DNA of 64,000 nt from positions 573,527-637,526 of the forward strand of contig JBMOPW010000014.1 in assembly GCA_049322915.1 (NCBI GenBank). Direction: 5' to 3'. Under the pieces are notes generated by a model. That model was not told the origin of the DNA. It saw only the letters and a list, made by a program, of their open reading frames with translations, and did not search any database. Each line of letters opens with the position of its first letter. The stretch's first letter is position 1. Origin of the DNA: Candidatus Zhuqueibacterota bacterium (lineage in GTDB: Bacteria > Zhuqueibacterota > Zhuqueibacteria > Thermofontimicrobiales > Thermofontimicrobiaceae). The translations under genes were made by a program, and so were the position numbers. Below, piece after piece: positions 49 through 12,004 of the stretch.

Positions 49-3000
49 ATGATTGAAATTGCCGGTTTTATAGGTAAAATATTATCTGAAAAGGCGCTCG
101 AAAAATTGTTGAACAACATTTTTAATGGCAACAAATCCGCGCTGCAAAAAGCGTATGAAAAGGCGTTTGAAAATACAGTTAATTATTACGAGTATAATTA
201 CCGCAACAAGTATGGTGCAAAGAATAACCGCTTTTTTAACTACCAGTCCGCGGAAGAAGAACTGATTAAACTCACCTTTGTCCGCCAAAATCCTGACCCG
301 GACATGCTGGCGCAGATTGAGTGGGAGCATGGTGTAACAACTCCCCCAAAAATTATTTTAGATTTTGTGAACTACCTGCGTTATCAGATGTCCCAATTCA
401 GGGAATGCGAGGACATTCTCGTGGAAAAGGATAAATATCAATCGTTGATGAATATTGATAAAAATACAGATGGAATTGCCCGAAATATTAAAGAGCTCAC
501 CAACCATTTTGTAAAAAAAGAACCCGAAGAAGATACCAGGCCGCTCCACTGGAAACACCTTTACAACGCCTTTAAAGACCGGAAGCTGCATGAAGTCTCC
601 ATAAAACATGTTGGCGGTGGTTTGTTGGGACCGGAAACCCTCCCGCTGGAAGATGTATTTTTTGTGCAGGATGCAGGTTTTCGATGGCTGGGAATTGGAA
701 TGAAATCTGCCAAAGTGCAGAAGAAAGAAAACAAAAACAGTGAACTGTTCGATGAGCTGACTGTTTGCGAAGGACATGTTTGGCGAGCGCTGCAGGAGCT
801 GCAAATAAATACAAGCCATATAAGAAAAATTATGGATGGAATCGATAAAGAAAAAATTTTAAAAATTGCCGCCGAGTTTGCAGTAAAATATAATAAACAT
901 TCAACGGTTTTCGGCAATCAGCATTTTCAGCAAATTGTTGATCAATTGGCCCAACGATTTGAGTTGACTTCTTCTCACATCATTGCCGCGTTGAGTCTTT
1001 ATTTTACAGAAACGATTAAACGCGAGCCAGTCCTTGATTTGCTGAAACCGCCCTGTTCCGCATTTGTTATCGGGGACGCCGGCGTGGGAAAAACAACGGT
1101 GATGCGAAGGCTGGCTCTGAATTTATTCCATCGACTGGAAAACGGCGAAGAAAATGTACCGCTGCCTTTATTTGTCAGGCTTGACAAGATCGAGGATTAT
1201 ATAAAAGAAAAACAGAGCATCCATCAAGGGAAAAAAGCGTTGCTGCAATATATCGCTGACCATTGGAAATCGCATGTCAGTCATGAATCCGACATTTCAG
1301 CGTCTGCCATTGAACAATGCGAATTACCCCTGCAAATAATGCTGGATGGGTTGGATGAAATCCCATCCGCCAATATCCGGGAAAAATTAATCCTCGTCAT
1401 TCGCGATCTTGTTCAGGGACAAACGTGCAATATTATTATCACCTCCAGGCCGACTGCCGTGGATACGGCGTTAATTAAAACTTCTGAATTAAATGAGATT
1501 CGCCTGCTGGAATTAACATCCAAACAAACAAATGAATTTGTGAACAAATTTTTTGAAATATACAATTGTCCGAAATCAGGCAAAGCCGACAGCGCCAAAT
1601 TCAAATCTGCGTTAGAGCTTTCCGACGCGGCCATGCTGTTTGCCGGCAATCCGCTTTACCTGACCGTGATGATTTTAATGCACAAGAAAAATGAGGTGCT
1701 GCCCAAAAAAAGGTTGGAACTGTATGCGGAATTTTACCAGATGTTGCTGTTGCAGCGTTCGACCGGGCAATTCAAAGGCAAACTGGCAGACAGGCCTGCG
1801 CTGCGCATTCAGGATGAAAAAATTATTCACTGGGGCGAGGCCGTTTATACGCCTCTGCTGCAATGGATCGCTTACCTCACCCACAGCAATGACGCAGACA
1901 GCGTTAGCATCGAGAAACAATATGTGATTGACGCGATTAAAAAGGAAGATTTGCAGCAGGAGTTAAAACTGATCAGCCTGGAAAATCTGGCAGAACGATT
2001 CATTAATTTTGCCGATGAAGAGCTGGGATTGCTGGTCTCGCGGGGACAGTTTTACGGATTCAGCCATCGGTCGCTGCAGGAATTTTTAGCGGCCATGCAT
2101 CTGGCTGATTATCAGAAAGAACCATCCATTGAACAGTTTTGGACGGACCAGGCGCTGAAAAAACCGGATCGCTGGATGGAAGTGGCCCGGCTGCTGTTCT
2201 GCAAAATTCTGGATAAAAAATTTTTCGCGACCTGGGTGCGGGATATAAACGATACAAAAGATCCCCGCGTGATCCGGTTAATTCAATCCATTATTTTCGA
2301 TCTGGAAGAGTTCTTTCCCGGGGGCGGCGGCATTCAGTCGCAGAAGGAAAGTGTGCAAAAAGCGCTTGTTTCCCGGCGGGATAAATCCCACGGCTCACCG
2401 GACATGTTCCTCGCCTGCTCCGATGCACTTGGTTCCATGGATGTTCCGCCAATTTCCATTGCCGATCCGCCTGTGGTAAAATTGGTGGCACGGGAGCCGT
2501 TCACCATGGGGATTAATTATTTCGATGATGATACGAAACCTGAATTTAAGGCAACTTTGTCACCCTATTACATGGGGCAATACCCGGTCACCAATAAGGA
2601 ATTTGCCGAATTTATCAACGATGGCGGGTACACCGAGGAAAAATATTGGCGCAGCAGTCATGAAATGTTTACTTTTGATGGAAAAAAAATTTTAGAGGAT
2701 TTAAAAAATAAAACTCCTGAGTATTGGGATGACGAACGATTTGGCAAAAAACGTCCCCTGGTCCCTGTCGTGGGCGTGAGCTGGTACGAGGCCATGGCGT
2801 ATTGTTTATGGTGGAATGAAAAATATGGCGCGGCATGGGCAGAAAGTCATGGTCGTAAAAAAATACTGGTGCGCCTGCCCACCGAAGCGGAATGGGAATT
2901 TGCTGCGCGTGGCTATTCAGGCAGAAAATATGCCTGGGGCGATGAAAATATTGAAACGGACAGGTGTAATTTTTCTTCCTCCAACTTAGACAGAACCTCG

Positions 3001-3300
3001 ACTGTCGGCAGCTATCCCCGGGGCAAAACGCCGGACGTCGATCTGTACGACTTGAGCGGCAATGTCTGGGAATGGTGCATCGATTGGTACAATGAGAAAT
3101 TTTATGCGGAGTGCAAAAGACAGGGTGTCGTGGAAAATCCTGTATGCGCCAGTAAAGGTTCGTACCGCGTGATGCGCGGCGGTAGCTGGGACTTCACTGC
3201 TGACTACTGCCGATCGGCGAATCGTAGCAGGGGCCGTCCTGGAAGGCGTAACAGCCTTGTTGGCTTCCGCCTGGTGTTCGTCCCGCAGTCAGTTGTGTAG
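49..3300 (+). CDS. NACHT NTPase + C-terminal FGE-sulfatase/SUMF1 (C-type lectin fold) protein; DGR target 1
   Basis: Walker A GDAGVGKTT, Walker B LDGLDE, IITSRP, GNPLYL, FSHRSLQEFLAA; C-terminal FGE motifs VTNKEF, RLPTEAEWEFAARG, DLSGNVWEW, RGGSW, GFRLV; RBS 'aggag' upstream. Confidence 0.92.
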   Translation: MIEIAGFIGKILSEKALEKLLNNIFNGNKSALQKAYEKAFENTVNYYEYNYRNKYGAKNNRFFNYQSAEEELIKLTFVRQNPDPDMLAQIEWEHGVTTPPKIILDFVNYLRYQMSQFRECEDILVEKDKYQSLMNIDKNTDGIARNIKELTNHFVKKEPEEDTRPLHWKHLYNAFKDRKLHEVSIKHVGGGLLGPETLPLEDVFFVQDAGFRWLGIGMKSAKVQKKENKNSELFDELTVCEGHVWRALQELQINTSHIRKIMDGIDKEKILKIAAEFAVKYNKHSTVFGNQHFQQIVDQLAQRFELTSSHIIAALSLYFTETIKREPVLDLLKPPCSAFVIGDAGVGKTTVMRRLALNLFHRLENGEENVPLPLFVRLDKIEDYIKEKQSIHQGKKALLQYIADHWKSHVSHESDISASAIEQCELPLQIMLDGLDEIPSANIREKLILVIRDLVQGQTCNIIITSRPTAVDTALIKTSELNEIRLLELTSKQTNEFVNKFFEIYNCPKSGKADSAKFKSALELSDAAMLFAGNPLYLTVMILMHKKNEVLPKKRLELYAEFYQMLLLQRSTGQFKGKLADRPALRIQDEKIIHWGEAVYTPLLQWIAYLTHSNDADSVSIEKQYVIDAIKKEDLQQELKLISLENLAERFINFADEELGLLVSRGQFYGFSHRSLQEFLAAMHLADYQKEPSIEQFWTDQALKKPDRWMEVARLLFCKILDKKFFATWVRDINDTKDPRVIRLIQSIIFDLEEFFPGGGGIQSQKESVQKALVSRRDKSHGSPDMFLACSDALGSMDVPPISIADPPVVKLVAREPFTMGINYFDDDTKPEFKATLSPYYMGQYPVTNKEFAEFINDGGYTEEKYWRSSHEMFTFDGKKILEDLKNKTPEYWDDERFGKKRPLVPVVGVSWYEAMAYCLWWNEKYGAAWAESHGRKKILVRLPTEAEWEFAARGYSGRKYAWGDENIETDRCNFSSSNLDRTSTVGSYPRGKTPDVDLYDLSGNVWEWCIDWYNEKFYAECKRQGVVENPVCASKGSYRVMRGGSWDFTADYCRSANRSRGRPGRRNSLVGFRLVFVPQSVV
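3157..3288 (+). repeat. DGR variable repeat VR1
   Basis: 132-nt ungapped match to TR 3601-3732 with 15 mismatches, all at TR adenines. Confidence 0.96.
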
Positions 3301-3401
3301 TTATTCAATTTTCCTGTGAGCAAAACGAGCTGTTTGAACGGAGTGAACGAGGCGGCGAGGGACGAGCCGCCGAGAGAGTGGAGTGAAAACAGCGAGTTGG
3401 G
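3289..3401 (+). promoter_or_regulatory. Post-VR1 IMH/hairpin target-recognition region
   Basis: Near-identical to 6019-6131 after VR2 and absent after the TR; stems gctgttt(3329-3335)/aaacagc(3387-3393) and ggcggc(3351-3356)/gccgcc(3366-3371). Confidence 0.75.
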
Positions 3402-3456
3402 GGGGATGTATAAAATTAGTGAAAATACATTATAAATAGGCTGATTAGATTGAAAC

Positions 3457-3543
3457 CTGTCATTGCGAGGAACGTTTTTTGTGACGAAGCAATCCCCTTG
3501 GGCACAGTAGATTGCTTCGACAAAAACCGTCTCGCAATGACAG
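3457..3543. repeat. Palindromic REP/MITE-like element
   Basis: Terminal IR ctgtcattgcgag/ctcgcaatgacag plus inner IR cgaagcaatc/gattgcttcg. Confidence 0.8.
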
Positions 3544-3600
3544 TATCCTAGAAAGATTTAGATGTACTATGCCAATATATTGAAATGGGCATCAATCGCA

Positions 3601-3732
3601 GGTTCGAACCGCGTGATGCGCGGCGGTAGCTGGAACAACACTGCTGACAACTGCCGATCAGCGAATCGTAACAGGAACAATCCTGAAAGGCGTAACAACA
3701 ATGTTGGCTTCCGCCTGGTGTTCGTCCCGCAG
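3601..3732 (+). ncRNA. DGR template repeat (TR)
   Basis: Intergenic AAC/AAT-rich copy of the two gene 3' ends (11 AAY triplets, 33 adenines); all differences to both VRs are at its adenines. Confidence 0.95.
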
Positions 3733-3860
3733 CTCACAGGAAAGTTGGATGACTACCTCTGAACAGATTGCTGTCCCACTCGCTGAAAGGCGATAAATAA
3801 CGAAACAGAATACACAGCGCTGGTAGGGCAAATGGATGTTTGTTTCGAAGGCGCTGTGTG
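3733..3860 (+). ncRNA. Structured 3' spacer of DGR RNA (putative)
   Basis: Directly follows TR; stem acacagcgc(3812-3820)/gcgctgtgt(3851-3859) and small hairpin tcgc-tgaaag-gcga. Confidence 0.55.
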
Positions 3861-3900
3861 TTTGATAATTGGATTGTTTTCAAGAGGAAAGGTTATACAA

Positions 3901-6030
3901 ATGGTTGAGATTTTTAAGCCCATTATTGATCTGTTAACAAACCCTTTATCTCATTTATTTAAAACTCTCGGATTCGGTGACAAGGCGGCAAATGCCTTTG
4001 CAGCGGTTTTGCTTGCATTAATTTTCTATCTTATCATTATCTTATTGAAAGATCAATTTCGAAGGTTTAAAAATAGGCGCAGCGCCAGAGATTTAAAACC
4101 CGAATTTGATTATAAGACAATTAAAGGCTTTCGTGAAATTTTTATTCCCTCAAGATATGATCGGATTTCTCCCAATAGGTATGATAATCCCCATGAGGCG
4201 CATAAGCATAGTGAACCCCGTAAGCTTATTCCATTTATGTTAAAAAAGTCATTTAACGAACGGGTTGAAAATGAAAAGTTTTATTTAATTCTTGGAGACT
4301 CCGGGATGGGGAAGACCGCATTTATGGTCAATTTGTATATAAAATTTCATTCAGTTTTCAGATTCAACCGGAATCATAAAATGAAATTATTTCGTTTCCA
4401 GCCGCCGGATATAGATGATCCCGAAGACGTAATTGAGAGAATAAAAAAGATAGATCGCGAGGAAGCAAAAAATACAATTTTATTATTAGATGGATTAGAC
4501 GAAGACCCTTATATTTTATCCAAAGATCCGAAAGTCACCGATGACGCTGCTTTTGAGAAGAGATTAAATAATATCGCCAGCAGCACTAAAAATTTTTGTG
4601 ATGTTGTTATCACCTGCCGTACACAATATTTTCCACAGGAAGAGTTGCAGGATTATGTCCTTAGTATTCGAAAACCTGATGGCGGATTTTTTAAATTAAA
4701 TAAATATTACTTGTTTCCCTTTTCTGATAAAGAAGTTAAAAAGTATTTAAGAAAAAAATATGGAGTGCTCAGATTTTGGAACCGGCCAAAAAAGAAAAAA
4801 GCGAAATTGTTAGTTGAGAATTCTCATAAATTAATGTCCAGACCGATGTTGCTCTCGTATCTGGATGATTTAGTTGTTGAGGAGGATGTTAAATATAGAA
4901 ATTGTTATCAAATTTATGAAACGCTGATTGAAAAGTGGATTGACCGGGAAAGTAAAAAATGTAAAAAACCAAATGAACAGGAGAAATTTAAAAAAAATTT
5001 AAGAAAGCTGGCGCACGAAACTGCGCTGGATATGTACGCGAAATGGCAATCCGAGGGTGTGTTGTTTCTTAAAAAAGAGGATACCGATAACCTGGCAAAT
5101 AAGTATAATATTGAATTAAAACCTGAAGAGGTTAAAGGCAAGTCCTTGCTCACCTGCGATCCGTTGCGAAACTGGAAATTCGCCCATAAATCCATTCTTG
5201 AATATTTTCTGGCAATAGAATGTTTTAATAAATTGGAGTTTGCAGTAAACTTCAATTTCACCGGTATGGACATGGTGAAACATTTTTATGAAGAGATGCA
5301 GCCCTTTATTAATGCAACCGATTTTGTCAAAGTGGAATTTGGTGTTTTTAAAATGGGTGATGAGTATGGCGATCTAGGCTCTAGTGAAAAACCGGTGCAT
5401 GATGTAAAAATTTCCGATTTTTATATGAGTAAAACTTTAGTGACGCAAAAATTCTAGAACGATATTATGGGAAGCAATCCATCACATTTTAAGAATGGAG
5501 GAGAATACCCGGTTGAACAAGTGAACTGGGATGATGTTCAGGAATTTATTGAAAAGTTACACCAAAAAACAGGCATGAAGTTTCGTTTGCCCACAGAGGC
5601 TGAATGGGAATATGCAGCCCGCGGCGGCCACAAAGCCCCGGTAAAAGATGGCGTGCATGTTGGGAAATTCAGGTATGCCGGCAGCGATAACCTGGATGAA
5701 GTGGGTTGGTATGAAGGAAATTCAGATAAAAAAACTCACCCGGTTGCCGGTAAAAAACCGAATGAACTGGGGCTGTACGACATGAGCGGCAATGTGTGGG
5801 AGTGGTGTCTGGACTGGTATGATGAAAAATATTATAAAGAATGTCAGAAACAGGGTGTTGTGGAAAATCCTGAGTGCACCAGGGAAGGTTCGTACCGCGT
5901 GATGCGCGGCGGTAGCTGGAACAACACTGCTGACTACTGCCGATCAGCGTATCGTCGCGGGGGCAATCCTGTTAGGCGTTTCGACTTTGTTGGCTTCCGC
6001 CTGGTGTTCGTCCCGCAGTCAGTTGTGTAG
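3901..6030 (+). pseudogene. Membrane-anchored NACHT + FGE-sulfatase protein, DGR target 2, interrupted by in-frame TAG at 5455-5457
   Basis: N-terminal TM helix, GDSGMGKT, LLDGLDE, VITCRT, FAHKSILEYFLA; ORFs 3832-5457 and 5467-6030 are in the same frame and separated only by one TAG (VTQKF*NDIMGSNPS); likely start ATG 3901 after 'agaggaaagg'. Confidence 0.85.
5887..6018 (+). repeat. DGR variable repeat VR2
   Basis: 132-nt ungapped match to TR with 15 mismatches, all at TR adenines. Confidence 0.96.
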
Positions 6031-6131
6031 TTATTCAATTTTCCTGTGAGCAAAACGAGCTGTTTGAACGGAGTGAACGAGGCGGCGAGGGACGAGCCGC
6101 TGAGAGAATGGAGAGAGAACAGCGAGTTGGG
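6019..6131 (+). promoter_or_regulatory. Post-VR2 IMH/hairpin target-recognition region
   Basis: Copy of 3289-3401 with few substitutions. Confidence 0.75.
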
Positions 6132-6203
6132 TTTGCGGCGTATTGATAGAATTAAATCTATTTTTGGTCTATGCACGTGCGCGTAATGTTAGTCGTTGAA
6201 ACG

Positions 6204-6857
6204 AGCCCCAACGGGGCGAGATACTTTAGCTCAGGGCAACGCCCTGAGTAGATGGTAATTAACACGAACAAATCACCACAACACCCATCAACAAACCGAG
6301 GGTGCCATCACCCAAACAGGAGAGAAAGGAGGAATGATGCCACAAAGCCTGTCCAAAGTATACATTCATTTAGTGTTCAGCACAAAAAATCAAAAAGAAA
6401 TTATCGATCCTGACATTGAAAAAGAGTTGTATCCCTACATGGCGGCGCTATTTCGTGAAAGCGATTCACCGGCGATTATTATAAATGGTGTATCGAATCA
6501 TGTGCATAATTTATTTTTACTCTCCCGGAAATTTGCAATCAGCCAGGTTGTTGAAAACGTAAAAAAGAAATCATCAAAATGGATAAAAACAAAGGGTGAG
6601 CGGTATAAATCATTCTATTGGCAAAACGGATACGGGACTTTTTCAATCAGTCGCACGCATGTTGATGTGGTGAAAAAATATATTTTAAACCAGAAATCGC
6701 ATCATGCACAGACCTCGTTTCAGGGCGAATACCGGAAACTCCTTAATAAATACAATATCGAATATGATGAGCGATATGTTTGGGATTAGGGCGTTTATTG
6801 AGTTCCGTGGTCATCAGGGCGTTGCCCCGGGTTGGGATAAGTCGCTCCGTTGGAGCT
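6204..6857 (+). mobile_element. IS200/RAYT element with inverted REP-like palindromic flanks
   Basis: 6204-6246 (agccccaacggggc...cagggcaacgccctg) is an imperfect inverted copy of 6815-6857 (cagggcgttgcccc...gctccgttggagct). Confidence 0.7.
6334..6789 (+). CDS. tnpA: IS200/IS605-family (RAYT-like) Y1 HUH transposase
   Basis: YIHLVFSTK, HUH motif NHVH, WQNGYGTFS, YILNQ, ends YVWD. Confidence 0.9.
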   Translation: MMPQSLSKVYIHLVFSTKNQKEIIDPDIEKELYPYMAALFRESDSPAIIINGVSNHVHNLFLLSRKFAISQVVENVKKKSSKWIKTKGERYKSFYWQNGYGTFSISRTHVDVVKKYILNQKSHHAQTSFQGEYRKLLNKYNIEYDERYVWD

Positions 6858-6967
6858 AAAATTCAGAAAATTCCACCGCAAGGTTTTTTCCCTGGTATCG
6901 TCAAAACAAGTAGTCGTTCTAATCATGAATTAATTCAGACCAACCACAGGAAATTTTTTTAACGTGC

Positions 6968-7612
6968 ATGGCAGATTTTTCGAATGTGACACATAGCGCA
7001 GAAATCCGGAGACAGAAACGTGATCGGGCGACTCCCATGGATGAGCTGGAACTGCTGGAAAAATTGAAATCCGGACAGGCGGATGCATTCAAATTTCTGG
7101 TGGATGCGTACCATGAAAAAGTATTGAATACCTGCTTTCGATTTCTGAATAATAAAGAGGACGCGGAGGATTTGGCCCAGGAAGTCTTTGTGACGGTGTA
7201 CCGGTCGGTCGGTGATTTTCGGGGGGAATCCAAAATTTCATCGTGGATTTATCGCATTGCCGTCACTCGTTCGCTGGACGCCTATCGCAGGAAAAACCGG
7301 AAAAAGCGTTTCGCGAAAATGCAGCGCCTGATTGGACTTAAGGAAAACGAAGATGCGCTGCAAATTCCCGATGCTCAGAATCCATCCGCTGAATTGGAGG
7401 ACAAAGAACGGGCGGCGATATTGCAGCGGGCGCTGAATGGGCTGCCGGAGAATCAGCGCGCGGTCATCACGTTGAACAAGTACGAGGGGTTCAGCCAAAA
7501 AGAAATTGCAGACATCATGGGGACATCTGTTTCGTCGGTCGAGTCGTTGATGCATCGTGGAAAGAAGAATTTGTTTAAACGGCTGTACGCGTACTATGAT
7601 AAAATTATTTAA
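6968..7612 (+). CDS. ECF RNA polymerase sigma-70 factor
   Basis: DAEDLAQEVF, SWIYRIA, LPENQRAVITL..EGFSQKEIADIMG; start may be ATG 7037. Confidence 0.92.
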   Translation: MADFSNVTHSAEIRRQKRDRATPMDELELLEKLKSGQADAFKFLVDAYHEKVLNTCFRFLNNKEDAEDLAQEVFVTVYRSVGDFRGESKISSWIYRIAVTRSLDAYRRKNRKKRFAKMQRLIGLKENEDALQIPDAQNPSAELEDKERAAILQRALNGLPENQRAVITLNKYEGFSQKEIADIMGTSVSSVESLMHRGKKNLFKRLYAYYDKII

Positions 7613-7619
7613 TGTACTT

Positions 7620-7785
7620 AGCCTGCATTATTCATAGTATTTTTAAAGGAGGCTGGCTAACCTGAATGGTGCTCTTTTTAGAATAAACGTATAAAAACTG
7701 AGTTTCAAAATAGCTTAGCCTTTAGCTAATTGAAAATCTAAATGTTGACTCAAATTCTGAGCAAGTTCATGAATAATTCAGGTTA
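7620..7785. mobile_element. 166-bp MITE copy 1
   Basis: 3 mismatches to 47203-47368; imperfect terminal IRs agcctgcattattcat / atgaataattcaggtt. Confidence 0.8.
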
Positions 7786-7993
7786 GACGCAACTCTGGAA
7801 AATTCGGACATCCTTCCTTGCTCCCCTTCAAAGGGGGGATGCGGTCAACTTTAGCTATTGGCTTTCATTGACAAGTAGCGATTGAACGTTGACAATTGAC
7901 TATTTCTTTTTTCCTTTCAATGGCGAATTGCAAAGGGAGAATTGTCAATTGTGAATGAGGAATTGATGTTACTATAATATTTTACTATTATTT

Positions 7994-8073
7994 ATATGAA
8001 TGACCAGTTAAAATTTTGGCGCCTATATCATTATTGGGCATTCGCGTAGTGGACGGTCGCGACTGTCCACTAC
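7994..8073 (+). repeat. 80-bp repeat ending in GTAG-type REP hairpin, copy 1
   Basis: Similar to 34669-34748; hairpin gtagtggac...gtccactac. Confidence 0.7.
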
Positions 8074-8165
8074 ATATACAAAAGTGGATCGAATTTATTG
8101 CACATGCTTTCAACTGGTCCTTCATATTATTCATATAACCACATCTTTTTCGAAGAGGGATAAAG

Positions 8166-8474
8166 ATGAACCGAAAACAAAAAATCGAACAGGAAATTGA
8201 AAAAACGCTCGGGCAATTTGAGCGGGCGGAACGGCTGCCGTCCAATCCTTATTTCCACACCCGGGTTCAGGCGCGACTCAATGAGACGCCGGAGCCGAGC
8301 GGGGTGTTAAAACCGATATTCCTCGCAGTCCTGCTCACGCTGAATATCCTGACGGCCGTTTACTTCATTGGCGGAGGAACCTCGCAGTCGACGGCCCGCA
8401 GCGATTTGCTGAGCGAATTTGCCCAGGAAATTGGTCTTGAAGAAAGCGAAACTGAATTCATCAATATTCAATAA
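8166..8474 (+). CDS. Putative single-TM anti-sigma-like protein
   Basis: NPYFHTRVQARL followed by TM helix; downstream of ECF sigma. Confidence 0.65.
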   Translation: MNRKQKIEQEIEKTLGQFERAERLPSNPYFHTRVQARLNETPEPSGVLKPIFLAVLLTLNILTAVYFIGGGTSQSTARSDLLSEFAQEIGLEESETEFINIQ

Positions 8475-8483
8475 GGTGCGACG

Positions 8484-9029
8484 ATGGATATTTTTACAAA
8501 AAACAGACTTACCATAATCACCATTATTTTGCTGGTCATTTTCAACCTGATTACGCTGGCCATTATTTGGAGTGAAAAAATTCGCCCATCGGGGAGACCA
8601 CTTGCGCAGCATCCGATTGAGCAGCGTATCAGGACAGTCATGTTCCTGAAAAATGAACTGGGGCTGAAGCCGGACCAGGTTCGGGAATATCGCACGCTTC
8701 GCTCGCAGTACCGGGAGCGGATGAGAACAAACAGCGAAGAGATCAGGATGTTAAAAAAGGAATTGCTCAACCAGTTATTTCAGGATAAAATAGACAGCCT
8801 GGAGGTGGAGCGAATCATCGGTCGCATTGGTGATAAGCAGGAGCATATCGAGCGACTCACATTGGGCCATTTCCATCAGTTGAAAAAATTATGCGGCAAT
8901 GACCAGCAGCAGAAGCTGCATCGACTGCTGGGTGAATTGTTTCGTCCGCCGGATCGTCCGCCTGAAATCGACGAGGACATGCCCCGGCCGCAACATCCCG
9001 ATGTTCGGCCCCCTCGGGAGGAATACTGA
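8484..9029 (+). CDS. Periplasmic heavy-metal sensor / Spy-CpxP-like protein
   Basis: N-terminal TM/signal, helical region ELGLKPDQ...QQQKL; typical ECF/anti-sigma context. Confidence 0.7.
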   Translation: MDIFTKNRLTIITIILLVIFNLITLAIIWSEKIRPSGRPLAQHPIEQRIRTVMFLKNELGLKPDQVREYRTLRSQYRERMRTNSEEIRMLKKELLNQLFQDKIDSLEVERIIGRIGDKQEHIERLTLGHFHQLKKLCGNDQQQKLHRLLGELFRPPDRPPEIDEDMPRPQHPDVRPPREEY

Positions 9030-9261
9030 CAGATAAATATAGAAATTTTTGGGCGAACGCCCTGACGATTTAGGATTAACTCTCCTCTCCGCCATACATG
9101 GCGGAGTTATTCATTAACTTTGACTGGCTCCGTTCTTTGGAACGGAGATTTTCATAATTCACCTGGAGTTATTAGGCTTTAGCCCGGATGATACATCAAT
9201 TTTTTTTGCTGGTCATTCCTATTATTAACAAATCACAGGAGTCATCGAATAAATTGGAGCA

Positions 9262-10125
9262 ATGTCCATGAAAAAACAAATGCTGATAGGTTGCATCCTC
9301 TGGGGGCTGTCCAGCCTGTTAGGATGTCGCGAAACTAAACTGGAGAACCAGTGGGTGGCGGAGGAAGTGATCGTTGATGGAAAAGACGATGAATGGAAAG
9401 GAGGCTCGCTCACGTACGCCGAAGCGATGAATTTGGCGCTGGGGACGGCGAACGATGCGCATCATCTGTACGTGATGTTTCGATTGAATGATCCCGATAT
9501 GGCGCGGAAAATACAGATGATGGGAGTGACGGTCTGGCTGGATGCGGAAGGAGGCAAGGAAAAAACGTACGGCATGGTCTACCGCGGCAGTGTCGAGATG
9601 CAGCGTGATCTGGCGCCAAAAGACCAGTTCGATGCCAGGGAAGAAAATGCCGGCACAGGAAGAAGGAGACCCATGATGGAGCGATTCGGCGCGGACTTGC
9701 CGGAGTTTGGAAAGATTCGCATGATTGAAAGAAGCGACAAAAGGGATTTGTCAGCCAATAACCCGGACGGCCCGGCCGCCGGATCCGCGTTGAGCAATGG
9801 ATATTATACATTCGAGTTTCGGCTGCCGCTTCCTGTCTCGGTGACAGGCGATGATAAAATGAATTTGTGCCTGGAATTGGGCGGAATGAGCAATGAAGAA
9901 AAGGCTAAAATGAGAGAAGCAATGCCTGGCGGCGGAAGAGAAGATGGGCCGCCGGAAGGTGGTCGACCCGGTGGCGGAATGGGCGGCCGGCCCGGCGGAA
10001 TGGACGGTGGTCAGGGAGGCATGCGAGGCGGCGGCCGACCCGGGGGCATGACGCAACCAGGCCAGGGACTGGAAAAACAGGAATTGTGGTTTGCGATTCA
10101 ACTCGCTGCTCAAAGTAAGGAGTAG
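9262..10125 (+). CDS. Hypothetical lipoprotein with Gly-rich low-complexity tail
   Basis: Lipobox LLGC; GGRPGG repeats. Confidence 0.75.
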   Translation: MSMKKQMLIGCILWGLSSLLGCRETKLENQWVAEEVIVDGKDDEWKGGSLTYAEAMNLALGTANDAHHLYVMFRLNDPDMARKIQMMGVTVWLDAEGGKEKTYGMVYRGSVEMQRDLAPKDQFDAREENAGTGRRRPMMERFGADLPEFGKIRMIERSDKRDLSANNPDGPAAGSALSNGYYTFEFRLPLPVSVTGDDKMNLCLELGGMSNEEKAKMREAMPGGGREDGPPEGGRPGGGMGGRPGGMDGGQGGMRGGGRPGGMTQPGQGLEKQELWFAIQLAAQSKE

Positions 10126-10366
10126 CATTTCGATGCGATCAATTTACTCTCCTGCGCGATTACACAGGGCTAATCCCTGCGGTGGAATGAATGGAGATTC
10201 GCGATGATGTCATTGAATTTGGCTGACAAAGGTTTTGTCGCGCATGGAATGGCTGTGCCGGAAGGCGAACATATACCGACAATAGAATAAATCACCTTCG
10301 AGAGAAAATAGCCGGGGAGAAAGGAAAGCCGGCAGGACAGGATTTTTCAGTTTTTAATTTCAGAAG

Positions 10367-10400
10367 AGCCCCTGAGGACGTGAGCGCCAAAGGGGCTTTT
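10367..10400. terminator. Putative intrinsic terminator between convergent genes
   Basis: agcccct...aggggct + tttt. Confidence 0.5.
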
Positions 10401-10411
10401 GTATTATTGAA

Positions 10412-12004
10412 TTACTGAGTCGCTTTCAATGACTCAAATTTTATAAAGCCTTCCGGATTTTGCGCCTTCCCGTCCTGCCTGATTTCGAAATGAAGATGCG
10501 GGCCGGTCGATTTTCCGGTTTTGCCGACGCGGCCGATCAACTCACCGGCTGCCACATGACGCCCCATGTCAACCAGCACTTCGTCCAGATGTGAATAAAA
10601 CGTTTCGAACCCATTTTCATGCTGAATGATGATGTATTTTCCGTTGCCACTGGCTTCGTTCTTGTCATCCGAAATGGCGCGAGTCACTGTGCCCGAGGCA
10701 GCGGCTGTGACTTCGGTACCGATTGGAGCCGCCACATCGACGCCATTGTGGAACGCTTCCTTTTTCGTGAACGGGTTGATCCATTTCCCATACGGAGCCG
10801 TGAGTTTGCCCACCTGTATTGGAAGGATGAAAGGCGGATTTTCTTTCTGGACAGGCGTAGCAGATTGTCCTGCCGCTATTGCGCCATCCGGGAGAATTTC
10901 AGGATTCTGTATGAACGCACCGGCCATAGGCAGCAGAAAAATCCCGACCAGAATAAATGTGCTGTATAAAAGTAACGATTGGTATTTTCCCATAAACGAG
11001 TCTCCTCTTAAATTGTTAATCCGGTAAACTAATTTTTTCCGTTGGCTGCCAAATCCCGGCAGCACCTTTATCTCTTCAGCGCTAAAAAGATTCAATTTTA
11101 AAATGGCCATAATCCCGTTGCCATAATGTGAGCGGGAAATTTTCTTCTTCGCCAGAACCCGGCTGTCGCAATCGCATTCGCGGGACAGGCTGATTTGGCT
11201 ATTGAGGAACCAGACCATTGGATTAAAAAAATAAGCGATTTGCAAAAGGCTGAACAGCCTCATCCACAAATTATCCCACCGCTGGATGTGAGCCATTTCG
11301 TGGGCGATAATTGGTTCGACTAAAAAATAATTCCGCGATTCAATGGCCTTTTTCGGGATGAAAATGACCGGGCTCCAAATGCCTGATGTAAAAGGCGACA
11401 AATAGTGTTCGGAACAAACCAGTTTGACTTTTCGCCGGATGCCGAAAAGGGTGCTCCATTTATCAACTAATTCTAAAATACCGGCGCTTCGAACCGGGAA
11501 CGACTGTCTCACAGTGGTTTGAAAACTCTGGAGTTTTCTGAGGTAGATGATCAGCAAAACCATAGCCCCGAAACACCAGGCCAGAAACAGGAGGGCTAAA
11601 AGCGCATTGTGTTTTGAAATCTCCAAAGAAGGGATTACAGTCGACGCATTCGAAGCAATGTCGCCTTCGTCTCTGTTACCATTCCACAAGTCGCCGGAAT
11701 AATCGATTCCCTGTTTATCGTCCTGTCCGAAAAAGTCGAACCAGTGAACCAGCCGCTCAAAAACCGGCATGTGGCCTAGCAAATTCCACGAGCTGAGCGG
11801 GTGCGACAGGTTCGGCGGCAGGATGAGGCGGATTAAAATTAAAAGCCACAATGCATATCGCCAGCGCGGTGATTGAATTTTGAAGATTTTAATCAGCATC
11901 CAGACTAGGAAAAAGACAATGCCGGCGTAAATCGAGTTTTGCCAGAAAAATGGAATGACCGCTTTCCCGGTTTGAATGAAGTGGTGTATAATTTCGATGA
12001 TCAT
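10412..12004 (-). CDS. BlaR1/MecR1-like M56 metallopeptidase fused to M23 peptidase
   Basis: M56 HEMAH..RWD and RECDCD; M23 HNGVD, YSHL, STGPHLHFEIR. Confidence 0.92.
   Translation of the reverse strand: MIIEIIHHFIQTGKAVIPFFWQNSIYAGIVFFLVWMLIKIFKIQSPRWRYALWLLILIRLILPPNLSHPLSSWNLLGHMPVFERLVHWFDFFGQDDKQGIDYSGDLWNGNRDEGDIASNASTVIPSLEISKHNALLALLFLAWCFGAMVLLIIYLRKLQSFQTTVRQSFPVRSAGILELVDKWSTLFGIRRKVKLVCSEHYLSPFTSGIWSPVIFIPKKAIESRNYFLVEPIIAHEMAHIQRWDNLWMRLFSLLQIAYFFNPMVWFLNSQISLSRECDCDSRVLAKKKISRSHYGNGIMAILKLNLFSAEEIKVLPGFGSQRKKLVYRINNLRGDSFMGKYQSLLLYSTFILVGIFLLPMAGAFIQNPEILPDGAIAAGQSATPVQKENPPFILPIQVGKLTAPYGKWINPFTKKEAFHNGVDVAAPIGTEVTAAASGTVTRAISDDKNEASGNGKYIIIQHENGFETFYSHLDEVLVDMGRHVAAGELIGRVGKTGKSTGPHLHFEIRQDGKAQNPEGFIKFESLKATQ

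Follow-up and report, generated by a model that had tools for sequence, protein, structure and literature searches.

Directly after the template repeat (TR) of the diversity-generating retroelement (DGR) cassette studied here lies a segment, X, that is complementary over about 30 nucleotides to a segment, rcX, found directly after each of the two variable repeats (VRs). In related DGRs of uncultured bacteria from several phyla the two arms covary, accept wobble differences and none of the A:C type, and match their own partner better than those of other loci. As read from the sequence, this pattern points to X and rcX being a selected, locus-specific base-pairing pair. We infer that X could act as a guide or tether in retrohoming. 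The cassette belongs to a Candidatus Zhuqueibacterota genome, and coordinates below are those of the window, that is, the whole stretch of 64,000 nucleotides that was analysed.

Organization of the cassette

Two target genes lie on the plus strand. The first (49 to 3300, 1083 aa) encodes a NACHT/STAND NTPase with a C-terminal FGE-sulfatase (C-type-lectin-fold) domain carrying VR1; its Pfam matches are NACHT (1.3e-14) and FGE-sulfatase (1.8e-50, residues 817 to 1076). The second (3832 to 6030), a STAND NTPase with an FGE-sulfatase domain, has an in-frame TAG at 5455 to 5457 and is read as two ORFs, 3832 to 5457 and 5467 to 6030, over which its Pfam FGE-sulfatase match is divided. VR1 (3156 to 3288), the TR (3600 to 3732) and VR2 (5886 to 6018) are members, all on the plus strand, of a single direct-repeat family (D2). 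Within 3600 to 3732 the TR differs from each VR at 15 positions, and in both cases all 15 are TR adenines. The confinement of TR/VR differences to TR adenines is that of a DGR, as is the placement of the variable region at the C-terminus of FGE-sulfatase/C-type-lectin-fold targets. From 3702 through its last base, 3732, the TR is identical to the VRs, so that IMH equals IMH* here; the difference between IMH and IMH* that marks a BPP-1-type target site is not found.

The similarity between the two target sites continues past the repeats: the approximately 90 nt after VR1 and after VR2 are 93 to 100% identical, and the coding sequences just upstream of the VRs are 70 to 83% identical. Beyond rcX, this region holds a conserved module. 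After VR1 (3322 to 3400, plus strand) it consists of an outer stem, read directly from the sequence (3329-3335 with 3387-3393), and of a GC hairpin (3351-3356 with 3366-3371, loop GAGGGACGA), and it keeps 93 to 100% identity with its VR2 counterpart up to about 3379. The module after VR2 (6052 to 6130, plus strand) has its GC hairpin at 6081-6086 with 6096-6101. The GC-rich inverted repeat GGCGGC/GCCGCC is thus present at 3351-3371 and, as a copy, at 6081-6101. A motif-anchored script recovered a GC hairpin of this type in 14 of 29 distinct related post-VR flanks, among which the loop sequence (A/G)AGGGACG is conserved. This hairpin is likely the counterpart of the hairpin/cruciform of BPP-1. 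RNAalifold returned no consensus fold for 13 post-VR regions, which aligned poorly.

Between VR1 and the TR lies a REP/MITE-like palindrome (3447 to 3545), which is outside the DGR proper and has many matches, on both strands, in this genome and in sister genomes. An IS200-like gene is present at 6334 to 6789. In a consensus scan of 3250 to 3900, promoter-like sites were absent and terminator-like sites numbered two, both on the minus strand, which is within chance. Sequencing contigs from two DNA sets, in which rare variants are dropped, break at the three repeats and contain no VR variants.

Complementarity between the TR flank and the VR flanks

An earlier note on this DNA had reported that 3732-3756 is the reverse complement of 3297-3321 and of 6027-6051, with 22 Watson-Crick pairs and three G:T, and we recovered the same arms. 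Each of the three non-Watson-Crick positions, read directly, is a G in the TR flank facing a T in the VR flank, and the arm does start at the end of the repeats, G3732 being the last base common to the TR and both VRs. When the 25-mer of 3297-3321 was used as a query, it matched 3297-3321 and 6027-6051 on the plus strand with 0 mismatches and 3732-3756 on the minus strand with 3 mismatches; the mean number of matches over 100 dinucleotide-preserving shuffles was 0.00. A repeat search gave the same X/rcX arms, as inverted repeats I2 and I3.

The note had also proposed a scan of the genome for remote targets. Over the 6,251,638 bases of the assembly (45 contigs, 6.25 Mb, 96% complete), the 25-mer has three copies at up to three mismatches, two forward and one reverse, all at this locus, and the backwards control has 0; no remote target was found in this genome. 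Being unique to these three sites, the 25-mer is not a dispersed repeat.

The complementarity is somewhat longer than the 25-mer. ViennaRNA duplexfold joins 3732-3762 to 3289-3321 by 27 Watson-Crick and 3 G:T pairs, 30 in all, interrupted by two small bulges and taking in CTGA at 3759-3762 with TCAG at 3289-3292. The energy of this duplex is -45.5 kcal/mol, compared with -14.0 (sd 3.0) for 500 shuffled VR flanks, and it spans from the last base common to TR and VR to a conserved TGAGC. X is therefore taken here as 3732 to 3762. Its putative docking segments are rcX1 (3289 to 3321), which includes the stop codon TAG at 3298-3300, and rcX2 (6019 to 6051), identical to rcX1; all three are on the plus strand. 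The two halves of X differ in character: locus specificity resides in the 5' half (3732 to about 3747), the one that matches rcX perfectly, and the 3' half (GGATGACTACC) is conserved and has a predicted alternative pairing with the 3' end of the TR. Since X itself, in place of rcX, stands behind the TR, a pairing of about 30 base pairs with X is offered after a VR only, and would separate VR from TR despite the identical repeats.

Covariation among related DGRs

Three collections of related loci were assembled. The first, made from genome contigs with the shared TR/VR end as search pattern, contains 38 loci. The second, made from metagenome contigs with a TR-flank motif as pattern, contains 120 loci, 12 of them with a VR-like repeat; most of the remaining ones are, by eye, chance matches of the degenerate pattern, and 40 that were too short were left out. 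Both patterns are free of the complementarity itself. Together these two collections yield 24 distinct flank pairs and 15 TRs, 12 from the main clade and 3 of a Chlorobi type. The third collection relied on RT homology: 26 of 167 phylum genomes had a match at E <= 1e-40, among which five close homologues and three TR-VR pairs were obtained. These add three main-clade pairs and bring the main clade to 15 TRs, from several phyla. Loci L039, L040 and L041 (genomes G012, G004 and G005), with one repeat copy each, were left out. Purpose-written scripts were used for the trans-pairing statistics.

The covariation predicted in the earlier note for homologous loci is observed: the 15 main-clade TR flanks pair with their own VR flanks, with divergent inner sequence. 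At the locus of the sister genus (G003), for instance, the arms differ from those of the window at about 10 of 25 positions (counted by eye) and pairing is kept, with 25 Watson-Crick pairs, 2 G:T and one G:A over 28 nt. Throughout the main clade, 15 to 16 of the 16 positions of the ungapped arm beside the TR are paired, with the exception of JBLIRO (11 of 16 in the ungapped count, owing to a 1-nt indel). Over 11 TRs, 9 of the 16 arm columns contain at least two types of Watson-Crick pair.

The pairing is also specific to the locus. Cognate duplexes have a mean energy of -48.8 kcal/mol and non-cognate ones of -32.4 kcal/mol; 11 of the 12 main-clade TRs have their cognate VR as top-ranking partner, and all 12 VRs their cognate TR. 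None of 20,000 permutations reached the observed cognate mean, although shared ancestry of the loci means that the binomial and permutation figures overstate independence; the direction is uniform throughout.

Which strands pair can be read from the kind of difference that is accepted. Pairing of sense with sense is stabler than antisense with antisense in 27 of 27 listed pairs, and in three of three pairs obtained by RT homology. Among 14 distinct main-clade TR flanks, comparison of X with the reverse complement of the VR flank gives 34 transition differences of the wobble type (23 G:T and 11 T:G), 0 of the A:C or C:A type, and 9 transversions. Such tolerance of G:T alone indicates that the pairing strands are the sense TR flank, as RNA, and the sense strand after the VR; a wobble would be harmless only if X is RNA, so that X probably acts as RNA. 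The suggestion that selection operates on pairing between TR-flank RNA and the sense strand after the VR is thus strengthened, both by these counts and by the covariation.

A cDNA copy of X pairing with the bottom strand was considered as well. It would tolerate A:C and not G:T, the reverse of the 34 to 0 observed, and was rejected.

The same counts bear on the possibility that X and rcX never pair, and are merely DNA-level inverted repeats, duplicates of a single site for protein binding or recombination (cassette terminal repeats or an invertase site, for instance). In canonical loci X and rcX do flank HRDC-RT-TR as inverted repeats, and the region is prone to mobile elements (the REP-like insert at 3447-3545, the IS200-like gene at 6334-6789). 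However, sequence identity alone predicts G-to-A and A-to-G differences in equal numbers, and not 34 of the wobble type against 0 of the A:C type. Moreover, in no locus is an arm separated from the TR or VR end, and VRs located downstream of the TR bear the same arm in the same orientation, which cassette terminal repeats do not account for. We regard this explanation as hardly credible, and retain base pairing between X and rcX.

Position and number of the arms

Arms adjoin the TR and VR ends in every locus examined. For 11 of the 12 main-clade TRs of the first set (JBLIRO, with its indel, being left out of this count), pairing begins with the last base common to TR and VR, and in those 11 the VR arm ends with TGAGC or a wobble variant of it. 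So precise a start might evoke target-primed reverse transcription, in which the sense strand would be nicked after TGAGC (3321|3322) and its 3' end, paired to X, would prime the RT at the last TR base: here C3321 pairs with G3732, precisely that last common base, and the constancy of the start and of the TGAGC end in 11 of 12 first-set TRs agrees with such a nick. Such priming, however, would leave antisense-TR DNA attached to the sense strand as an inverted fold-back, from which VR replacement is not easily reached, and in BPP-1 cDNA synthesis is target-independent and primed by the spacer RNA (Naorem 2017 PMC5703328; Handa 2018 PMC6182149). Target priming is in our opinion very improbable.

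The number and placement of the arms are informative in another respect. Multi-target loci have an rcX after every VR, as with the three VRs of JAJFLO246 and the two of JBLIRO27, and paralogous copies differ in ways that wobble pairing allows. All VRs examined are co-oriented with their TR. The order of the parts may vary, and pairing is kept both in G151, where TR-X is upstream of the target, and in G131, where the VR is downstream of the TR.

A second way to use the complementarity is between RNAs only. X would pair with rcX in the target mRNA, or inside one polycistronic transcript (target-VR-rcX-HRDC-RT-TR-X), and form a stalk of about 30 bp, either a substrate for processing (by RNase III, say) or a regulator of the TR RNA or of the target mRNA, without any direct role in finding a DNA target. 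Tolerance of wobbles fits RNA-RNA as well as RNA-DNA pairing, and the co-orientation of all examined VRs and TRs is as expected. Both arms could be on one transcript, since rcX precedes HRDC-RT-TR-X in the canonical arrangement, and the simple consensus scan gave no plus-strand terminator-like site between VR1 and the TR. On the other hand, a stalk needs a single rcX, whereas every VR has one, be it upstream, downstream, or a second or third copy, and the paralogous copies differ in wobble-compatible ways. In addition, rcX begins exactly where TR/VR homology stops, which ties it to the repeat boundary and not to transcript ends, and the pairing persists in G151 and G131, with their altered order. 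We hold an RNA-only role to be unlikely, while giving it appreciable weight. Since every VR keeps rcX and a single stalk needs one partner, each target appears to need its own tag, in keeping with docking of X beside the VR.

Distribution of the complementarity

Outside the main clade the feature fades. The three Chlorobi-type TRs have short conserved pairing only (9 to 13 bp, plus bulges and short side helices), and no locus specificity was found for them (cognate ranks 7, 2 and 5). On the Chlorobiales contig CAIUQW375, the rcX-like flank also occurs after VR-like ends on two contigs of the same MAG, CAIUQW172 and CAIUQW201, these copies being VR-like ends and not confirmed VRs of the CAIUQW375 TR. 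Two out-groups, BPP-1 (z -1.5) and the Avd-type DGR that this genome carries on contig C16 (z -0.6), gave no significant flank complementarity; the 9-nt exact complement present in BPP-1 was reached by 24 of 1000 shuffles. The feature is thus specific to the clade.

One VR-like repeat, at 9390 in JAFGKD64, is without rcX. Its differences fall outside TR adenines in 21 of 40 cases, compared with 9 of 24 and 8 of 20 in its two rcX-bearing neighbours; being a single case, counted over a 140-nt span that overruns the repeat, it was given no weight.

Fold of the TR RNA

A second duplex encloses both the TR and X. On 16 TRs with their flanks, RNAalifold pairs a leader strand (GGGCATCAATC, 3587 to 3597) with a spacer strand (GATTGCTGTCCC, 3766 to 3777), both on the plus strand; 8 of the 10 pairs are changed on both sides, 95.5% of the cells are paired, and 0 of 500 shuffles are as good. 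This corresponds to the upstream/downstream duplex of the BPP-1-like DGR RNA fold (Handa et al. preprint). Between X and the strand that pairs with the leader lies a near-invariant motif, CTGAACAG (3759 to 3766, plus strand), a candidate priming region. Further on, a small hairpin (TCGC/GCGA) followed by an A-rich run was read from sequence and alignment at 3780 to 3799 on the plus strand, its stem sequence varying among loci. The single-sequence fold of 3560-3835 is no better than that of shuffles (z -1.15).

X itself may adopt other folds. Its 3' half has 12 candidate pairs with the 3' end of the TR (93.8% paired, both-sided changes 0), where the BPP-1-like fold has a template:primer duplex between TR end and spacer, and a local hairpin of X with 10 pairs, 3 of them with double changes, is predicted. 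Such folds, local or with the TR end, would compete with docking. In the TR flanks of some other DGRs, found in the metagenome scan, a perfect local 10-bp hairpin occupies the position of X, suggesting an origin of X from the stem-loop present behind the TR in other DGRs.

An RT-less cassette

A scan of 12 ORFs between 49 and 15969 gave no RT, so that the adjacent RT of a DGR is lacking, and the window has no HRDC gene, the hallmark of HRDC-type DGRs. At the scale of the genome, RVT_1 matches are limited to contigs C34 and C16, and tblastn with the RT of G003 leads to the same two contigs only; neither search gave a cognate RT in this genome. Contig C16 holds a canonical bAvd-TR-RT DGR with a different TR. 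The best HRDC match by tblastn (61 aa, E 4e-7) is on C4, the RT matches being on other contigs.

Related loci are more complete. The sister-genus genome G003 has the same cassette, with VR1, TR and VR2 on one strand, and in G003 and five other loci an HRDC protein of 163 to 179 aa and an RT of 335 to 361 aa are encoded between VR1 and the TR; in one related locus the RT is a 459 aa open frame. The HRDC gene is present in all 6 related loci scanned, and the canonical order in the relatives is target-VR-HRDC-RT-TR-(target-VR). In place of HRDC and RT the window has 312 nt, including the palindromic element at 3447-3545. Two KSB1-labelled contigs show a comparably short VR-TR spacing. As RT and HRDC genes are absent here and present between VR1 and the TR in relatives, the window contains, by its gene content, an HRDC-type DGR cassette minus its HRDC and RT genes, an RT-less remnant or orphan. 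With neither cognate RT nor HRDC, and with a stop codon in target 2, the cassette may be a relic or inactive. What this genome has is an RT-less, probably decaying copy in which all the RNA and target-site elements are kept.

Proposed mechanism

In BPP-1, the spacer RNA serves as primer of the cDNA and stays covalently attached to it (Naorem 2017 PMC5703328; Handa 2018 PMC6182149). A 2026 study (PMC12875486) argues for annealing of the cDNA to the sense strand at the fork, while this strand is single-stranded, and still calls the integration step, how the cDNA finds and replaces the VR, unknown.

Our reading of the arms fits this frame. The TR transcript would fold through its leader and spacer, and cDNA synthesis would be primed from the spacer itself, so that X would become covalently joined at the 5' side of the mutagenised cDNA. 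The model places the RNA-cDNA junction a short way past the 3' end of X, close to CUGAACAG, and the cDNA would keep X. X could then anneal to rcX on the exposed sense strand just past the VR, and this annealing would dock the cDNA in register on the VR, much as RNA primers do for Okazaki fragments; the replacement may then be completed by the host's RNase H, polymerase and ligase. The variable 5' half of X would serve as the address by which a DGR recognises the targets that belong to it.

Three of these steps, that the partner is DNA, that X is kept on the cDNA and that pairing drives homing, we infer by joining the comparative data to what is reported for BPP-1. That X borne by the cDNA docks beside the VR, and so distinguishes VR from TR, has in our estimation about an even chance of being right. 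We are slightly more reserved about its generalization, a possibility that we put a little short of even, according to which HRDC-type DGRs use a programmable RNA address: a variable guide of about 16 nt placed directly after the TR would travel with the RNA-cDNA hybrid and pair with a corresponding tag behind every VR, setting both direction and orthogonality.

Significance

A covarying complementarity of about 30 nt, with wobbles as the only tolerated transitions, in uncultured bacteria of several phyla constitutes independent comparative evidence for RNA-guided docking. If true, this docking would supply the long-missing account of how the cDNA finds and enters the VR, and explain why the template stays unchanged in DGRs with identical IMH and IMH*. 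Any gene could become a target by the addition of a tag, and DGRs whose repeat ends are nearly identical could be orthogonal to one another. This suggests that DGR mutagenesis tools might be retargeted, or run in parallel, by swapping a short tag. The question of DGR homing also becomes tractable, by mutation of one arm followed by a compensating change in the other.

The earlier note knew of no description of such a guide. Part of the idea was in print: in the untested proposal of Naorem et al. 2017 (PMC5703328), the spacer RNA still attached to the cDNA forms base pairs with the IMH of the VR, gives the process its direction and is later cleared away as the primer of an Okazaki fragment is. 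It is the only prior printed idea that we found, and concerns a short RNA-IMH pairing in one phage. The complementarity itself stands as undescribed in the literature searched: we found no description of TR-flank/post-VR complementarity in full-text literature, and subscription journals or supplements could still hold one.

Comparison with known systems

Mobile group II introns select their DNA target by pairing between exon- and intron-binding sites, which is in principle reprogrammable; their RNA reverse-splices into DNA and their RT is target-primed. The likeness to the present case is the choice of a target by base pairing of a retroelement RNA, and neither reverse splicing nor target priming is indicated here.

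Among DGRs, the closest relatives are those of HRDC type (architecture C of Wu et al. 2018, PMC5758913), as the relatives of our cassette carry HRDC and RT between VR and TR. The passages of that survey which we covered report IMH, IMH* and GC inverted repeats, and no complementarity between TR flank and VR flank. The same authors noted that, where the repeats show no difference right up to their ends, recognition must reach downstream; the X:rcX duplex, lying downstream of identical TR/VR ends, fits this requirement. Doré et al. 2024 (PMC10907252) described DGR loci in which the RT is replaced by MITE-like repeats, with STAND/NACHT-type targets. The targets, and the presence of a repeat at the place of the RT, are points of likeness with the window; the organism and the RT clade are different, and flank complementarity is not mentioned in the passages found.

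The RNA elements resemble those of the BPP-1 DGR RNP (Handa et al., 10.1101/2023.10.23.563531) in three respects: the position of a stem-loop directly after the TR, a duplex between upstream and downstream parts, and a hairpin followed by adenosines. There, the elements belong to Avd-type DGRs and concern cDNA synthesis, not target finding; here, the accessory protein of the relatives is HRDC, and the segment after the TR is complementary to the target flank.

The target site also has its counterpart in BPP-1, where the IMH and a GC-rich hairpin/cruciform downstream of the VR mark the target, with cis elements within about 35 to 90 bp past the VR (Guo et al. 2011, PMC3240598). A GC-rich hairpin follows the VR in both cases (3351-3371 here). 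The differences are that IMH equals IMH* here, that rcX is inserted between VR and hairpin, and that the hairpin loop is conserved in sequence, whereas in BPP-1 the stem structure alone is reported to matter (PMC3240598).

The strongest likeness is to the BPP-1 model of Naorem 2017 (PMC5703328), in which RNA joined to the cDNA and derived from just after the TR forms base pairs, at the 3' border of the VR, with the sense strand. The pairing proposed there is short (primer strand up to spacer A56), lies inside the IMH, and relies on few IMH/IMH* differences (PMC5703328). The pairing described here is about 30 nt long, wholly past the TR/VR homology, formed by an inverted copy of the TR flank, covarying and locus-specific. 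The X:rcX pair thus fits the BPP-1 framework, to which it would add length, specificity for the VR and the support of covariation.

RNA and target-site elements of the cassette

The leader upstream of the template repeat (TR; leader 3587-3597) can pair with the spacer that lies downstream of X, the TR 3' flank (spacer 3766-3777). This pairing covaries strongly across 16 loci, with double changes in 8 of 10 pairs, and it is still intact in the window despite the loss of the RT gene. On the target side, a GC hairpin with a conserved (A/G)AGGGACG loop is found at 3351-3371 and again at 6081-6101; among distinct related flanks, 14 of 29 carry it, about 52-85 nt past the variable repeat (VR). The conservation of the loop suggests that it is a candidate site of protein contact.

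Variant arrangements at other loci

The pairing of X with rcX, the complementary segment that follows the VR, is retained in a locus of different gene order (L232 in genome G151, 3819-8500): TR and X lie upstream of the target, and VR, rcX, HRDC and RT come after it. Within the locus sequence searched, no TR was found downstream of the RT. Another form of the TR flank is seen in three metagenomic loci belonging to other DGRs (L128, L182 and L183), which are known from their TR flanks, on short contigs that do not include their VRs. These flanks start with the same GCTCAA and finish with CTGAC, and the sequence in between forms a perfect local hairpin of 10 bp, with a GGAG or GGAC loop. Such a local hairpin may represent the ancestral form of X. 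The sole VR-like repeat that lacks rcX is on contig JAFGKD64 (loci L078/L077), where it ends at contig position 9390. It differs from the TR at positions other than TR adenines more than its neighbours do, and may be a retired target.

Repeats, transposase and interrupted target gene

In the window, the position that HRDC and RT occupy in relatives is taken by a palindromic element of about 100 nt (3447-3545). Copies of it are present at many sites, on both strands, in the genome under study (G000) and in at least eight sister genomes, and it resembles a REP/MITE-type repeat. Inverted repeats of 44 nt that are 75% complementary (6204-6247 and 6814-6857) flank a gene for an IS200-like Y1 transposase (6334-6789; Pfam Y1_Tnp, 3.4e-24), which may be the enzyme responsible for moving the palindromic repeats.

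Target gene 2 contains an in-frame TAG at 5455-5457, past which its FGE-sulfatase match continues. Relatives presumably have a tryptophan at this site (TGG to TAG); either the gene is broken, or the stop codon is a sequencing or strain variant.

Comparison with other DGRs

G000 itself encodes a complete Avd-type DGR on another contig (C16, locus L006, 8800-10856), which consists of a VR (8800-8936) in an FGE-sulfatase target, bAvd (9124-9477), a TR (9482-9618) and an RT (9783-10856). TR/VR-flank complementarity is absent from its flanks (z -0.6). A second RVT_1 match of G000 lies within an open frame of 988 aa on contig C34 (430973-431578).

In phage BPP-1, a 9-nt segment of the post-TR spacer is an exact complement of sequence at the post-VR hairpin, drawn from its 3' arm and the adjoining bases. 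This complementarity is weak, since an equally good match arises in 24 of 1000 shuffles.
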